Assembly (NCBI GenBank): GCA_046536595.1
Contig: JAWDMM010000004.1
Span: 1-53,409, forward strand
DNA length: 53,409 bases
Direction: 5' to 3'
Source of the DNA: Nitrososphaeria archaeon
GTDB taxonomy: Archaea > Thermoproteota > Nitrososphaeria > Conexivisphaerales > UBA164
The first letter of the stretch is position 1, and each line of letters opens with the position of its first letter. A program made the position numbers and the translations under genes. A model generated the notes under the pieces. The model saw only the letters and a list, made by a program, of their open reading frames with translations. It ran no database searches and was not told where the DNA came from. Below are positions 222 through 44,066 of the stretch, piece after piece.

Positions 222-307
222 AGCAAGATGATCAGCGTGAATCATACCTTTTAGTGCGAGGAAGCTTACAAGAATTTATAAGCTCCCATTGAAAATTTAT
301 ATCTGAG

Positions 308-3287: not shown

Positions 3288-3943
3288 GGTGCCGTTAACT
3301 TAAGGCTTAAAATTTATTTTTCAGCGGAGCCATTTTTCTAGCAAATTATTTGCAAACCAGAAAAAGGACCCCAACAGAACTTTATTTTATTTATTCAGTT
3401 TAAGCTTGCGGACATCTTACGTCCTTGGGTTCATAATTAAGAGAAGCCACGTTGCAATATAGAAATGGATTCAGAAGTCTTCATTCTTATTAGACTCCAA
3501 CGTTGGCAAGCAGGATGTCAATTCCATATTTATTGATGAAACTGAAATAAACTTTAGTGGGAAGCTATGGGTAGCATACGAACCTCAACTCAAAGCTTTC
3601 CTAAGGAAGTTTGTAAAGAAGTATTACAGGAAGGCTATCTACACAGACGGAGCTCTTAGGTACGTTGATGCATGTAAGTGGGCGGTGGTAGTGCATGTGA
3701 TATATGAACAAAGTTTGAAGAACTTAATGAAAAGTATGAACACATAAAGGACAAGACAGAGGCTTTTGACGACCTTTTCCCGTGCAAAAAGCCAAAATTT
3801 GATCATGTAAGTAACTGGTTCAAAGCCTTCAGGTTCTTCTACAACTATGTATTCACGAACGAGGAAATTGGTTCAGCGCCACTCTCCAATGATCAGCTTC
3901 CAGAATGGATTAAGCCAAGTTATGGGATTAAGTTAACGGCACC
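3288..3943 (+). mobile_element. Degenerate IS6-family insertion sequence
   Basis: Perfect 16-bp terminal IRs: GGTGCCGTTAACTTAA (3288-3303) and TTAAGTTAACGGCACC (3928-3943), enclosing a broken DDE transposase. Confidence 0.85.
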
Positions 3944-3991: not shown

Positions 3992-5320
3992 ATGACAAGC
4001 AGCCAATTTTTGATCAATAACCTCTGGGTGTCGATCGCTGCTTTACTAGTGTTTGCAATGACAATCTCTGTGGGATTGCTGGAAGTTGGTGAACTTGGAG
4101 AAAAGATGAACAGGAGCCTTCTCAAAACAACATTGATAATGGGCACAGCGCTCGTGGTTATGGGCTTGATTGGCTTTAACGTTGCATTTGCACCTACAAT
4201 CGATGGCATCATCGGTGATCCAGCTTACCTTCCTGGCCTTACTCTTGGCGCATTTTCAAAAGCCGCAAACTCTGTTTTATTCATAAACAACATCTGGTGG
4301 TCGATGACGCCACAGTACTTTGGAACTGGGCTGACAACAACAACTTACTTTTTATTTGAAACCGCATTCGCTTCTGTAACCCTTGCGCTCGTTGGCGTTG
4401 TTGTACTAAGAAAGATGAAGCTATCATCATTCTTCCTTTTCTCAATAGTTTACTTTGCAATAATCTGGCCACTGCCTGCAGCTTGGATATGGAATCCAAC
4501 CGGCTGGTTGTACCTTATGGGCATGAGGGATTTTGCCGGGGGGCTCGTTGTACATGGTGCTGCTGGTGCAGCTGGCATAGCTATACTCATCAGGATATGG
4601 CAGGAAGAAAGGAAGTTAGGTCTAAAGGAAAGCGTTCAGGAACAGATCAAGCTAAATGAAGGATGGCTTGTGCTGGCTACTCTGCTGCTCTTTATGGGGT
4701 GGTTTGGATTCAACCCAGGAAGCGTTTTAGCATTTAACAGTGATGTGCCAATGGTTGCAGTAGTTACCTTCCTTGCAGCCGCAGCCGCAATGCTTTCAAC
4801 CATGGGAACAAAGTATCTGGTTTCAAAGGAAAACCCGGGCATACTCTATGCTGTTAATGGATTGCTGATGGGCCTAATAGTTATAACTCCCCTTGCAGGG
4901 TTTGTTGAACCTGGCAGCGCAATAATTCTGGGACTCCTTGCAGGTCCAGTGTTCATAGCCGGTGAAAGGTATTTCTCAAAGTTCAAGTGGTTCACTGACC
5001 CTGTAGGTCTTCTGCCGGGCCACTTTTTGGGTGGACTTTTTGGAGTCACAATGATTGCATTTTTCACGGAAAGTGCCTACGCAGCTGCATCAGGAAACCC
5101 AACGCTCCCAAATGGGCTGCTTTTCGGGGGCGGAATGGCTGCATTGCATCAGCTTGGGGTAGAGGTTTTCGGCATAGCTGTAGTGCTCATCACAGTCTTT
5201 ATAATTTCATACATAACTATAACTTTGGTCAGCCATCTAACAAACGGATTGCTTATTAAGGAGCCTCAAACAATAGCACTAGAAGAAAGTCAGCCACCTA
5301 ACAAACGGATTGCTTACTGA
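3992..5320 (+). CDS. amt: Ammonium transporter (Amt family)
   Basis: Multiple TM helices; DFAGGLVVH, GWFGFNPGS, NG.L.GL..ITP.AG and DPVG...GH twin-His motifs. Confidence 0.92.
   Translation: MTSSQFLINNLWVSIAALLVFAMTISVGLLEVGELGEKMNRSLLKTTLIMGTALVVMGLIGFNVAFAPTIDGIIGDPAYLPGLTLGAFSKAANSVLFINNIWWSMTPQYFGTGLTTTTYFLFETAFASVTLALVGVVVLRKMKLSSFFLFSIVYFAIIWPLPAAWIWNPTGWLYLMGMRDFAGGLVVHGAAGAAGIAILIRIWQEERKLGLKESVQEQIKLNEGWLVLATLLLFMGWFGFNPGSVLAFNSDVPMVAVVTFLAAAAAMLSTMGTKYLVSKENPGILYAVNGLLMGLIVITPLAGFVEPGSAIILGLLAGPVFIAGERYFSKFKWFTDPVGLLPGHFLGGLFGVTMIAFFTESAYAAASGNPTLPNGLLFGGGMAALHQLGVEVFGIAVVLITVFIISYITITLVSHLTNGLLIKEPQTIALEESQPPNKRIAY
5228..5316 (+). repeat. 28-bp direct repeat, two copies, 61-bp period
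   Basis: GTCAGCCAtCTAACAAACGGATTGCTTA (5228-5255) and GTCAGCCAcCTAACAAACGGATTGCTTA (5289-5316), one mismatch. Confidence 0.9.
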
Positions 5321-5452: not shown

Positions 5453-5471
5453 GCCTTAAGTTAACGGCGCC
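5453..5471 (-). repeat. Third IS6-type inverted repeat, downstream of amt
   Basis: GCCTTAAGTTAACGGCGCC is the reverse complement of 3288-3306 (GGTGCCGTTAACTTAAGGC) at 18/19 positions. Confidence 0.9.
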
Positions 5472-18148: not shown

Positions 18149-18440
18149 ACTACCCGCCCTCACCAGTAGATCAAAATTTTTAGCGAAAGATGGCGTTTTA
18201 CCGTTTTTTTAAACCATGCACAATCCTGTGATCTAATAAAAGCGCATTAATATTTTTGAGATATGGAAAAATCTATAGATAATGCTCGTTTTTAAGCTTG
18301 TGCAGACAGGCTATAAAGAACAACCTGAAGCAGCATGACCCTTATAATGTATGAGTATAGCAAATTAATCATAAATTCAGATAAAAATTTTTGATCTACT
18401 GTTACGGAGGGGGACTTTCGCCCCCTTAACCCCCATAAAG
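18145..18440 (-). mobile_element. Minimal IS605-type element (right and left ends fused through their hairpins), interrupted by a MITE
   Basis: Right end GTGAACTACCCGCCCT at 18145. Left end ...GGGGACTTTCGCCCCCTTAACCCCCATAAAG|TTAAA at 18440 (TTTAA target on the minus strand), matching 29516-29550. Confidence 0.75.
18164..18401. mobile_element. 238-bp TIR MITE (CAG-terminated, possibly ISH3-like)
   Basis: TIRs CAGTAGATCAAAATTTTTA and TAAAAATTTTTGATCTACTG; flanks TCAC and TTAC fit a 4-bp TSD with one mismatch; no ORF. Confidence 0.8.
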
Positions 18441-18459
18441 TTAAAGAGAAAAATCACAT

Positions 18460-29314: not shown

Positions 29315-29545
29315 TCATGACCTTATGGCCAGAGCATCTCTTGAGATCCTGTTTTTATCAAACTTAAGCTCATAAGTTCTTGCATCCTGATGTTTTCTCC
29401 TAAGAAGCGTTTCCTTTTCATGATCCTCGCCTTCTTTTCAGGGTTGGGCATAAGCCTGTAATATTTTTCTTTATATAAAAACCTGTTGTAAGGGGCTAAT
29501 TTCAGCTTACAGATGGGGTCTTTCGCCCCCTTAACCCCCATAAAG
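29315..29545 (-). mobile_element. IS605-type left end with promoter and frameshifted tnpB 5' fragment
   Basis: TTTAA|CTTTATGGGGGTTAAGGGGGCGAAAG left end; TATA TTTATATA; ATG at 29451 reading MPNPEKKARIM/(frameshift)/KETLLRRKHQDARTYELKFDKNRIS, resembling a TnpB N-terminus. Confidence 0.72.
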
Positions 29546-29636
29546 TTAAATACAAATTCTAAACTGGGTAGCTTTAATTTTACAGATTTTTCAAGCTCAT
29601 GGCATCTCCGACTATAAAATTATAAAGACATGTCGT

Positions 29637-37784: not shown

Positions 37785-39821
37785 ATGAATAATGATCTTT
37801 ACCCGCTTTACTATCCAGAATCTATTTCTGTTATAGGCGTTTCCCCACGGGAAGATAATTTTGCTACAATAATATTTAAAAATCTACTAAAGTCAAAAGA
37901 TGAAAAAACTCTCAATGCTGAAATTTATCCAGTAAACCCCCTGTATGAAGAATGTGCGGGATATAAATGCTTGAAGGAAGTGCCAGAGACAGATTTGACG
38001 ATAATTTCGGTACCATCAAGCCTGGCATGGCAATACCTAAAAGAAGCGGATAAAAGAGGGACAAAAACTGCCATTGTTATTTCTGGAGGCTTTACAGAAT
38101 CTGGAGCTGGAAAGCTGCTCAAAGAAAAGTTAAAAATCAGGGTGCTTGGCCCTAATACCATAGGTATAGTTAATACACATAACGGGTTAAATACACTGTT
38201 CCTGCCTGAAAAAAAGGCAACTAAAGACGGAAGATTTTTAGAATCTCTTCCAAAGTTAAAAAAAGGTAAAGTGGCAATTATAACTCAAAGTGGAGGGGTC
38301 AGCGTTTCTATCCTTGATGAGCTTTTAACCAGCAACATAGGTATCAGTTCTCTTACTTGCCTGGGAAATTCTGAAGATATTACAATCTCTGATACGCTGG
38401 AATTTTTATCTTATGATGAAAATACTGAAGCTGTAGCTATGTACATTGAAGGAATCAAGGATGGTAAAAAATTTATGAAAATAGCCTCTGATTTAACTAA
38501 AAAGAAAAAAGCCTTTGCCCTGCTCGCAGGAGTTACACAGGTAGGAAAAAGAGCGACGATGTCTCACACCGCTTCGATAATGAGCAACTATGAAACATAT
38601 TCCTCTGCATTAAAACAGGCTGGAATAATACAGGTTTACACGCTCAGGGAACTTATAGATGTTATAAAAACATATGAAATGAACGGTTTACCAAGGTCTG
38701 ATAAGGCTATTGTGCTGACCAATAGCGGAGGCGCTGGCGTTCTTGCGGCCGACAACGTTGCAAAAAACGGAGTCAACGTGCCTGATGTATCAGGAATGTT
38801 GAGCGAGTTAAAGACAACCGGTAAAGTTCCTAAAATTGCAAGTCTTGCTAATCCCATAGACGTTAGCGCTTCAGGAACCGACGAAAGCATCATTGAGGTT
38901 TACAAAAAATTGAGCGAGAATGGCTTTTCAAATTTTATAATAATAAGTACCCATTATCCTCCTGGAATTACTGATAAACTTCCAGAAGCCATAAAACAGA
39001 TTTCTGACGAGTACAAAAACTTCAACATAGGGGTAGAACTAGGCAATACTGAATGGTCTGAACATTTGAGAAAGGCTTTCTGGCTAATGGGTATACCTGC
39101 TTTTAATTCTCCCGAAGAAGCTTCAATTACAATGGCCTATCTTGTAAAATCGTCAAAGGCACAGCCAACGTGGCGTTTTTCTCTTAGAAAAGAACCAAAA
39201 ATAAGTTTTAAGGGTATAGTGATAGATCCAGAAAGTTCTGAATTTTTAAAAGAATTTGGGTTTATTATACCTTCATGGGGATGGATAGATAAATCTGATC
39301 TCAATAAATTGCCATATCCTATTGTGCTAAAAGTTTACAGAAAAGACCTTATTCACAAAACTGAACAAAACGCTGTAAAGGTAAATATTTTAAACGCTCA
39401 AGAAGCGATGATCGCTGTTGAAGATCTGAACGAAAGATTCCCAGACGGCAGGATTTATTACCAGCAGATGATCAAAGGCCAGGAAATAAGGTTAGGTTTT
39501 GTAAAGGACGAATCTTTTGGAGCTGTTGTAAGCGTTGGTATTGGAGGAACACTGACAGAGCTCTACAGGATAACATCAAACTATGTTTGTCCTGTTACAT
39601 CTGATGAAGCTTTAAACATGCTTAAAGAAACAAAGATATTTGAGCTCTTAAAAGGTTACAGAAACAAAACTATTTATGATCCTGAAAAGTTTGCAAGAAC
39701 AATATCTGAAATTTCTCAATGGGTATATGATAAAGAAAATTTAAAGGAACTGGAAATTAACCCTCTTATTGTAAATGAGAATGGGCCTCACGTAATAGAT
39801 CTCAGAATGAACTTCGACTGA
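37785..39821 (+). CDS. ADP-forming acetate/acyl-CoA ligase (alpha-beta fusion)
   Basis: IYPVNP, ISGGF.E, LGPN, TQSGG, SHT phospho-His, TNSGG.G, NPID; C-terminal ATP-grasp (HKTE, EINPL). Confidence 0.88.
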   Translation: MNNDLYPLYYPESISVIGVSPREDNFATIIFKNLLKSKDEKTLNAEIYPVNPLYEECAGYKCLKEVPETDLTIISVPSSLAWQYLKEADKRGTKTAIVISGGFTESGAGKLLKEKLKIRVLGPNTIGIVNTHNGLNTLFLPEKKATKDGRFLESLPKLKKGKVAIITQSGGVSVSILDELLTSNIGISSLTCLGNSEDITISDTLEFLSYDENTEAVAMYIEGIKDGKKFMKIASDLTKKKKAFALLAGVTQVGKRATMSHTASIMSNYETYSSALKQAGIIQVYTLRELIDVIKTYEMNGLPRSDKAIVLTNSGGAGVLAADNVAKNGVNVPDVSGMLSELKTTGKVPKIASLANPIDVSASGTDESIIEVYKKLSENGFSNFIIISTHYPPGITDKLPEAIKQISDEYKNFNIGVELGNTEWSEHLRKAFWLMGIPAFNSPEEASITMAYLVKSSKAQPTWRFSLRKEPKISFKGIVIDPESSEFLKEFGFIIPSWGWIDKSDLNKLPYPIVLKVYRKDLIHKTEQNAVKVNILNAQEAMIAVEDLNERFPDGRIYYQQMIKGQEIRLGFVKDESFGAVVSVGIGGTLTELYRITSNYVCPVTSDEALNMLKETKIFELLKGYRNKTIYDPEKFARTISEISQWVYDKENLKELEINPLIVNENGPHVIDLRMNFD

Positions 39822-40026
39822 CGTCTTCTCCGTCCTAAAGTGCTAATGTTACCTTAGGACGGATCATAGGTTCGTGCTTTACCGCCTTCATAGCAAGTGG
39901 TTACCCACCCCGCTCCGTTCGTCCAGCGATAGACCAAGGGCTGTGCCTTCAGCCACTTACCCCTATCCTCAACGGACTCGGGAATATGTAGAGCCCTCAT
40001 GGTGCATTCCCTTACGGGACACGCTT
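39800..40026 (-). ncRNA. Candidate stand-alone TnpB omega-RNA (scaffold plus flanking guide)
   Basis: TATA at 40050-40057 lies about 25 nt before the conserved 5' hairpin TCCC-GTAA-GGGA; covarying 3' stem relative to copy 1. Expression not shown. Confidence 0.5.
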
Positions 40027-40097
40027 TAATGCGCTTTACAATGTTTTAGTATTTAAATTTTACCCCCTCTGGAAGAGGCGAGGCTTTCGTTCGTTTT
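39818..40097 (-). mobile_element. Complete 280-bp non-autonomous IS200/IS605-derived element, copy 2 (SMN1/PATE-like)
   Basis: Minus strand: TTTAC|AAAACGAACGAAAGCCTCGCCTCTTCCAGAGG left end, TATA TTTAAATA, a body alignable to 1-221, terminus GAAGACGTCAG. Left boundary is inferred. Confidence 0.85.
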
Positions 40098-40415
40098 GTA
40101 AATGACGTTTTATTTTATTAACAGGACTCCTTAATCATACGGCTTATAAATTTATTTAATATATTTTTTAAAAAATAAAAATAATTATCCTTTAATTTTT
40201 TGTTCAATTTAAGACAAATTTTTCATACATACAAATATTATTTTAATTTTTTTACAAAAATAAATATTTAATTTAAAATCATCTAAACTAATATATATAG
40301 TTAATTAAATTATTTCTTTCATAAATTAGAGAAATTTTTTGAAAAAAATTAACATTTTTAAGAGAAATTTTCTTAAAAACATATAAATATTTAGCTTTTC
40401 ATATAAATCATAAAG

Positions 40416-43023: not shown

Positions 43024-43226
43024 GAAAACTATCCTAAGCTCACTGCTAAAGCTTCCGGTTAATAGTCGAACCTTTGGGCTGAATTTTTTCTTTAATCTTT
43101 GCATTATTTTCAGGGTTGAGCACCAGTCTGCAAAGATCGTACGCTTAAAGCTTTTAAAAAATTCGCAAAGGTATGTCATTCACAGCTCGAAGAAGGGGAT
43201 TTTTTGCTCCTTTAACCAGCATAAAG
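43024..43226 (-). mobile_element. Degenerate internally deleted IS605-type element (about 200 bp)
   Basis: Left end GGGGATTTTTTGCTCCTTTAACCAGCATAAAG|TTAAA resembles 18410-18445. GTG at 43123 reads MLNPENNAKIKEK (compare MPNPEKKARIMK at 29451). Decayed right end GAAAACTATCC at 43024. Confidence 0.65.
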
Positions 43227-44066
43227 TTAAAATTCAAAAAGCGACCTGAGGACAAGGATTACATTGCTGGCTTCTCTGAACCTTCTCCTCGCATAGTCAA
43301 CCCATTTTTCCCCATAAGGAACATAAAGGGCTTTTTTTATATTATCTTCTTTTAAATTAAAAATAAATTTGTTCTTTATTCCGAGTAACATGGCGACAGT
43401 CACGTTCTTGTTGTACCGTTTGTTGAGTTCTATGGCCTCTTTAACAAGCTTCAGGTCATGAGTCGCAACGGTAAACTCTGACGCGTTTTCGAACAGATAA
43501 TGCATTATTCTCCTGTAATTTTCTGTTTTTTCTTTCCAAGTTGTATAAGCTATCTCAGGGGGTTCTTTGTAAGCTCCTTTAACCAATCTTATGATGCCGT
43601 TTCTTTTCACTATCTCCTCTACATCTTTATTGCTTCTCTTCAAATAAGACTGTATAGCTATCCCCTCCCTTGAGACCAGAAGTCCCTCAAAGTAAAGCTT
43701 TATTGTCGATTCTACATAGTTAGAAGCTTCCATGTCAAGCCATACAAACACATCGTTAACCTTAGCATATCTTAATATCTTCATATAATTTTCTTTAGCT
43801 TTTTCATAGCTTACGCTTAAGCCAATCTGAGTCGGTTTAACCGCTATATCACTTATTATCTTTTTTTCTGCTATTTCGTCTATAAGCTCAAAATAATTCT
43901 CAACGTTAGCAGTTATTTCATTTTCTTCTTTCAGTTCCTCTCCCAGATAATTGAGTATAACTCCTACGTTTTTTTCGTTCAGCTTTTTTGCGATTTTTAT
44001 AGCATCATCAATAGTTGGACCTGCTATCCATTTTTTCGCGAAAATCCTTTCTATCCACTCAAACAA
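43227..44066 (-). CDS. putB: Monofunctional proline dehydrogenase
   Basis: LGE, K.TQ.G, LDME, QSYL.R, RLVKGAY, ATHD, MLLG, YVPYG..W..Y..RR. Confidence 0.92.
   Translation of the reverse strand: MFEWIERIFAKKWIAGPTIDDAIKIAKKLNEKNVGVILNYLGEELKEENEITANVENYFELIDEIAEKKIISDIAVKPTQIGLSVSYEKAKENYMKILRYAKVNDVFVWLDMEASNYVESTIKLYFEGLLVSREGIAIQSYLKRSNKDVEEIVKRNGIIRLVKGAYKEPPEIAYTTWKEKTENYRRIMHYLFENASEFTVATHDLKLVKEAIELNKRYNKNVTVAMLLGIKNKFIFNLKEDNIKKALYVPYGEKWVDYARRRFREASNVILVLRSLFEF

Follow-up and report, generated by a model that had tools for sequence, protein, structure and literature searches.

The window, which is the whole 53,409-nucleotide stretch of DNA that was analyzed, carries two copies of a gene-less mini-transposon that has kept both transposon ends, the tnpA promoter region and the omega-RNA scaffold, and our preferred reading, to which we give a probability of roughly 0.65, is that this element transcribes a guide RNA of its own from the promoter it inherited, relies on borrowed TnpB and owes its retention or spread to cleavage of empty alleles. 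Its anatomy, its origin by deletion, its many copies at unrelated TTAC sites and the TnpB genes that could act as its partners are established at the level of sequence. According to the preferred reading, the guide RNA would be transcribed from the inherited tnpA TATA box and would load, in trans, TnpB made by full-size copies; TnpB with this RNA would cut only the element's own empty site, TTAC plus guide, and repair of the cut empty allele would copy the element back in, a form of homing. The acquisition of new sites would have depended on a TnpA for which the assembly of the host genome has no gene, and copies would recombine among themselves and with tnpB elements. We refer to gene-less elements with the same 5′ module and junction as minis, to the element at 40097-39818 on the minus strand as copy 2 and to that at 1-221 on the plus strand as copy 1; the genomes compared are the host genome (G000), a sister species (G005), a genome of the same genus (G003) and two relatives (G002 and G007).

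Copy 2 is an IS200/IS605 element of 280 bp in which both ends were recognized and no ORF of at least 80 aa was found, in agreement with the preliminary description of this DNA as a gene-less minus-strand element of IS605 type. The target motif (TAM), TTAC (40098-40101, minus strand), abuts the left end from the outside. The left end itself (40063-40097, minus strand) is common to the 1.4-kb tnpB elements and comprises the tetramer AAAG (40087-40084), which by analogy with IS608 we take to be the left-end DNA guide, and a subterminal hairpin (40084-40063), the stem of which lacks 2 nt in copy 2 and has a DNA fold of -4.4 kcal/mol versus -9.4 kcal/mol for the common form. Next to it lies a candidate promoter region of archaeal type (40026-40064, minus strand), a homologue of the promoter that precedes tnpA in the autonomous G003 element, with a purine-rich BRE-like run, the TATA-type box TTTAAATA (40057-40050) and a predicted transcription start near 40032-40026. 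The 5′ leader (39993-40024, minus strand) contains two small predicted hairpins, the first of which, the GTAA hairpin, begins at 40024/40022, that is, 26-28 nt from the end of the TATA box, where about 25 nt had been given. The omega-RNA scaffold (39818-39992, minus strand; internal junction between 39992 and 39991) consists of the tnpB 3′ tail and the right end, and a 14-nt loop deletion breaks the tail frame in copy 2. The right end (39818-39865, minus strand) has a GATC DNA guide, a 13-bp hairpin with two double-sided changes relative to the family majority, and the TCAG terminus (39821-39818). The predicted guide of copy 2 is host flank (39798-39817, minus strand) and is antisense to the last codons of an acyl-CoA ligase gene. 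Copy 1, interrupted by the contig start, retains the leader, scaffold and right end with the same junction as copy 2, and its predicted guide is its right flank (222-241, plus strand). Both guides are as written in the preliminary description, and sequence supports its claim of a TnpB omega-RNA scaffold that takes a different guide from the flank of each copy.

Copy 2 is a worn member of the family, having lost the 14 nt from a purine-rich loop and the 2 nt from the left-end stem and carrying a variant right-end stem, and it may be weak or silent. The predicted RNA of the element folds with z = -2.7 and the leader of copy 2 folds weakly (z -0.7). An Rfam search of the element returned nothing reaching the gathering score; the Halobacterium sotRNA model RF02656 matched copy 2 weakly over the full length of the model (39989-39829, model positions 1-174; 16.9 bits, E 0.072, gathering 88), and the start of this weak match, 2-3 nt from the mini junction, fits a deletion that kept exactly the scaffold. 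A sigma-70 scan, the model being of bacterial type and outside its range for archaeal promoters, found no promoter inside the element. The purine-rich loop, with TGA repeats (39897-39880, minus strand), might contain a K-turn strand like that of the Pyrococcus abyssi RNAs (PMC3124441). Two other candidate features were rejected: a micro-peptide from the ATG at 40000, which is missing in most copies, the tail frame being broken in most minis as well, and a pseudoknot of the terminal TCAG with CTGA of stem P4, for which covariation inspected by eye was not consistent.

A BLAST search of the host genome identified 11 minis with the 5′ module of copy 2 (E down to 1e-88), several of them ending at contig ends, which bears out the claim, made from copy 1, that the deleted form itself has spread. 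The family in G000 falls by BLAST into three size classes with common ends, namely the 11 minis, 18 tnpB-type right ends (1.4 kb where the element is complete) and four end-only elements of 49-113 bp. TTAC precedes 27 of 28 left ends, with T as the fifth base at only 19 of the 28, so that the target motif proposed earlier, TTTAC, is one base too long. The elements end in TCAG, their flanks are unrelated, empty orthologous sites exist and there is no target duplication. The minis resemble palindrome-associated transposable elements (PATEs) in having a left-end subterminal hairpin after a fixed tetramer, no tnpA or tnpB and ends common to gene-bearing elements, and they resemble standalone omega-RNAs in that the scaffold is homologous to the 3′ end of the cognate tnpB, terminates at the right end and is followed by a variable guide from the flank. 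Elements of 112-113 bp with left end, promoter and right end and without the scaffold were seen in both species (G000 C70:4397-4509; L042), a further deletion step.

The TnpB that had been expected to be encoded elsewhere is present in G000 as seven full-length ORFs (Pfam PF01385 and PF07282) with the Asp of RuvC-I, an alternative Glu downstream of it and the Asp of RuvC-III. Every aligned cognate TnpB that covers these motifs retains the three acidic residues, and no nuclease-dead TnpB of this family, of the TldR type, was found among those ORFs in G000, which speaks against the suggested dead TnpB partner; the alternative-Glu rearrangement is described as probably active in PMC10691335. The search for intact genes with the same ends succeeded for tnpB in G000. 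For tnpA the outcome was divided: no Y1 TnpA was found in the 91% complete G000 assembly, either by Pfam PF01797 or by tblastn with the G003 TnpA (best E 3.3), nor was TnpA found in G005 (both assemblies being 91-92% complete), and G003 carries TnpA next to related ends. Other TnpB families of the host genome (on C7, C24, C2, C104 and others; 38 PF07282 matches overall) are about 38% identical to the cognate TnpB, and at least one has a related left end. A second element, with terminal inverted repeats, has 8 of its 31 G000 ends in or beside the left-end hairpin of this family (C24, C30, C41, C49, C55, C63, C81 and C115; also L032/L040), which suggests that this hairpin is a target hot spot for it.

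Autonomous elements with both tnpA and tnpB and with related ends occur in G003, and the TATA region of the mini matches the G003 stretch between the left-end hairpin and the tnpA start codon; the promoter was therefore probably inherited from tnpA rather than newly made. In the mini copy of a Marsarchaeota record the tnpA start codons are still fused to the tnpB zinc-finger Cys-Pro codons, from which the GTAA hairpin derives. A further deletion, some 24 nt long, took away the RuvC-III codons and left the second small hairpin. Read from these sequences, the mini is the product of an internal deletion in an autonomous tnpA-tnpB element, with one breakpoint at tnpA codon 4-5 and the other at the zinc-finger codons of tnpB.

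Uniform decay had been named in the preliminary description as an observation against its claim. Decay in the family is uneven across regions. Divergence from the majority, measured in the 24 minis that have a left end, was lowest in stems P4-P6 (0.013-0.039), the BRE/TATA region (0.053) and hairpin 1 (0.056), and was higher in the right-end stem (0.099), the spacer and loops (0.11-0.17), the left-end stem (0.134), P3 (0.138) and hairpin 2 (0.224); these values are affected by the relatedness of the copies, and ascertainment by promoter and P4 motifs inflates the conservation of those parts. Of 33 minis, 22 have lost the tail frame with the stems kept; among tnpB tails the frame is broken in 3 of 15. 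Across 27 diverse copies, pairing is possible in 90% of the alignment cells, and changes on both sides were found in 12 of 50 pairs versus 6.2 ± 1.6 in shuffles (0/500); the covariation score was not significant (26/500), hairpin 1 contributed none of the 12 double-sided pairs, and five fall in the right-end stem, which is also constrained as DNA by TnpA. Conversion from tnpB copies could produce the conservation of the scaffold with no need for an RNA function.

This last point belongs to a reading that we consider rather unlikely, namely that the mini is a passive non-autonomous element that depends on nothing but its DNA ends, its promoter and scaffold being carried along and homogenized by recombination with tnpB copies, and that worn copy 2 makes no useful RNA. 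The deletion and weakened left end of copy 2 agree with it, as do the gene-level depth of RNA contigs specific to copy 2 and the allele exchange at its site, both described below. Were only the ends to matter, however, it would be hard to see why the shorter end-only elements are rarer than minis in G000 (4 versus 11), why the left-end stem decays faster than the TATA box and scaffold stems, why a strong left-end stem occurs in only 10 of 31 minis but in 18 of the 28 rows of tnpB type (Fisher p 0.02; parsing wrongly scored the stem as lost in three of the tnpB rows, an error that acts against the difference), and why promoter and leader, which have no tnpB template, still persist in distant lineages.

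Minis and full elements appear to replace one another. Eight right flanks are common to G000 and G005, and at five of them a mini in one species corresponds to a tnpB-type element in the other; in two of these five swaps both flanks match G000 tnpB ends at contig breaks, in two the left flank corresponds to one G000 site and the right flank to another, and one has a right flank only. At the copy 2 site, which is occupied in two species and in one further metagenome contig, each of three assemblies has a leader allele of its own. The exchanges are most simply read as recombination between copies, with repeat mis-assembly as the alternative. The swap of mini and full element at common flanks is possibly a new detail; a literature search at listing level found no description of mini/full exchange or of landing at stop codons (treated below), and this lends weak support to their being undescribed.

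The guides themselves were compared, for 33 elements including nine minis, with all 14,331 TTAC sites of the host genome. The sole perfect target of each guide is that element's own empty site, in keeping with the homing of such elements to their own empty sites in the published model of Meers et al. (10.1101/2023.03.14.532601). The best TTAC-flanked matches of the nine mini guides in G000 had 3-5 mismatches of 16, and those of 300 random 16-mers had 2-6, with a mode of 4; no TTAC-flanked target of the copy 2 guide was found in G000, and among viral contigs the two window guides gave nine exact 17-mer matches, none of them with TTAC. TAM-flanked targets at other loci, of the kind that a TldR-type system would have, were thus lacking in these scans, and a dispersed guide library with targets elsewhere, as first proposed, is unsupported. 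That proposal, in which the copies would be useful to the host by supplying TnpB, whether active or dead, with guides to viruses or to host genes, could draw on the different guide of every copy, on the occupation of the copy 2 site in more than one species and on the report that standalone omega-RNAs work in trans (PMC10691335). Against it, the guides match no better than random sequences, the viral matches lack the TAM, the aligned cognate TnpBs keep their acidic residues and most insertion sites differ between G000 and G005. We judge it very improbable in general and largely refuted for the G000 assembly.

Eleven RNA runs cover part of the region (positions up to 40145), and depth was analyzed in four of them (X1-X4). 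Contig depth summed over 39897-39935 was 8,000-45,000 in these four metatranscriptomes versus 4-9 on the ligase gene, and in all four the scaffold depth was hundreds to thousands of times the depth of the flanking gene, so the scaffold RNA of the family is abundant, although every copy, tnpB mRNAs and other organisms contribute to the summed depth, and the contigs give no strand, start or level. The abundant signal may come from tnpB mRNAs. Among the contigs listed, only one (X2, depth 254) enters the mini junction, by 6 nt, which as a sign of a mini transcript is a hint only; two listed contigs ending at the tnpB junction have depths of 109 and 9. Contigs with the distinctive right end of copy 2 have depths of 9.2 (X1) and 4.3 (X2), which is gene level. 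Depth was zero at 40014-40052 in X2 and X3, a result that is uninformative because allelic differences and short contigs can produce it. Abundant mini RNAs might instead act as decoys that tie up TnpB and damp DNA cutting, with a benefit to host or element that keeps promoter and scaffold after decay of the left end. Promoter and scaffold do outlast the left end, and in G005 minis outnumber intact tnpB genes (24 aligned scaffolds versus three full-length ORFs), but homing into empty alleles gives the same pattern with no need for a left end, and we hold decoys to be highly unlikely.

The site of copy 2 is explained more simply than by regulation. The right end supplies the TGA stop (39819-39821) of an ADP-forming acyl-CoA ligase-like gene (37785-39821, plus strand). 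In G002 and G007 the orthologous sites are empty and the ligase gene ends F-E-stop, exact GTAA being present in neither. Seen from the opposite strand, TTAC is GTAA and TCAG is CTGA, and insertion at a stop codon is therefore nearly silent (TAA to TGA). By a hand count, 7 of 33 G000 elements supply a stop in this way, comprising one mini, three tnpB-type elements, two truncated elements and one RNA-less PATE, a geometry present at 0.9% of all TTAC sites and at 5% of intergenic-or-stop sites (p about 0.001); among G005 minis it is found in 4 of 24. The stop-codon geometry mirrors tolerated insertion sites, not regulation. The antisense overlap noted at the 3′ end of the ligase gene is real, and a meaning in it is not supported: because the TCAG right end supplies a stop in elements of all classes, the overlap is a by-product. 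That copy 2 should regulate the ligase mRNA in cis is extremely improbable, for its guide is antisense to the last ligase codons but the same geometry recurs across classes and in the sister species, the insertion is nearly silent and two relatives have the ligase gene without the element. Other repeats were observed in the window. A third inverted-repeat element has 27 ends genome-wide, of which two delimit 3288-3943 and another sits at 5471, placing ends on both sides of an ammonium transporter gene (3992-5320); a 50-nt hairpin-bearing repeat occurs in three copies (18402-18451, 29507-29556 and 43188-43237), possibly the ends of another small mobile element. The genes of the host, among them Spt5 and an archaeal B-family polymerase, mark it as an archaeon.

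The mini is not confined to the host genome. A DNA search matched the family in 4 of 40 relatives, with minis in G005 (27 matches), G003 (three) and G002 (one), and a junction-pattern search of species genomes gave 24 matches, of which 7 of the 12 inspected were true minis, including Marsarchaeota, Caldisphaera (two) and Thermocladium records with the same junction. When 150 further genomes of the phylum were searched with a 5′-module profile, 5 gave matches; the ten profile loci examined included two with an identical junction, one with a truncated form of this 5′ module and two gene-less elements whose junctions differ, from which it follows that the design arose more than once. The mini module was carried by 46 of 50 metagenome matches, and three matches to the junction in viral contigs were none of them real. 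One G003 mini (L014:1463-1787) is inserted 15 nt past the last of eight CRISPR repeats; some 130 nt downstream there is a short end-only element. A bolder account, which we regard as possible but doubtful, is that one ancient RNA-only lineage hijacked the tnpA promoter and moved between archaeal lineages as a hyperparasite of TnpB; it would persist without a working left end or TnpA by homing into empty alleles and by displacing full tnpB elements through recombination, and would prefer stop codons, where the TAA-to-TGA swap is harmless.

The family brings together many copies, a parent element, a cognate TnpB of thermophile type and natural empty sites, which makes it a clean test case in which trans-homing is directly testable. 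The scaffold, if self-transcribed as the preferred reading predicts, would provide this TnpB family with a naturally occurring guide cassette in a single unit. The original examples of standalone omega-RNAs were IscB-type.

Several known systems resemble the mini. PATEs, which often encode omega-RNAs acted on in trans, are likewise gene-less, keep both ends and retain an omega-RNA, with trans action of TnpA and TnpB proposed for them; those in the available text of the Meers preprint (10.1101/2023.03.14.532601) are bacterial, and a dedicated promoter, a remodelled leader and exchange with full elements are not described there. The standalone omega-RNAs of OMEGA systems are mobilized RNA-only loci with a compatible effector in trans; they are reported to work in trans, whereas trans function is predicted for the mini from sequence, and their biological role is called unknown in the same review (PMC10691335). 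SMN1 of Sulfolobus islandicus (320 bp, ISC1733-dependent; PMC3718332), the comparison drawn in the preliminary description, is, by its description, non-autonomous, of similar size and mobilized in trans, and the mini has closer precedents. Halobacterium sotRNAs (RF02656, PMC4615843), the model of which matches weakly from 39989, overlap tnpB genes and are described in the part available as having no BRE/TATA, whereas the mini is gene-less with a BRE/TATA-like box. Similar in outline are the sRkB/sRkC and sRk48/52 RNAs of Pyrococcus abyssi, which come from repeated intergenic loci homologous to the 3′ end of orfB (tnpB); sRkB and sRkC are promoter-driven orfB-tail RNAs, and the primary transcripts of 211-218 nt begin 24 nt downstream of BRE/TATA and have variable 3′ ends. 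The likeness is again by description, their transcription having been mapped before the omega-RNA concept existed, whereas a mini transcript is predicted (PMC3124441). In Acidianus hospitalis, ten gene-less MITE-like copies carry the end that codes for the OrfB C-terminus, orfB elements are said to insert after TTAC and the MITE-like kind is reported in other crenarchaea too; the accessible part of that report (PMC3119797), on which the likeness rests, claims no RNA or promoter. Further literature was cited (PMC10640517, PMC11043419, PMC10278001, PMC13565253 and 10.1101/2023.11.20.567912). The mini is of a kind already described, with the omega-RNA-bearing PATEs, Pyrococcus sRkB/sRkC and the Acidianus MITE-like elements as its precedents.
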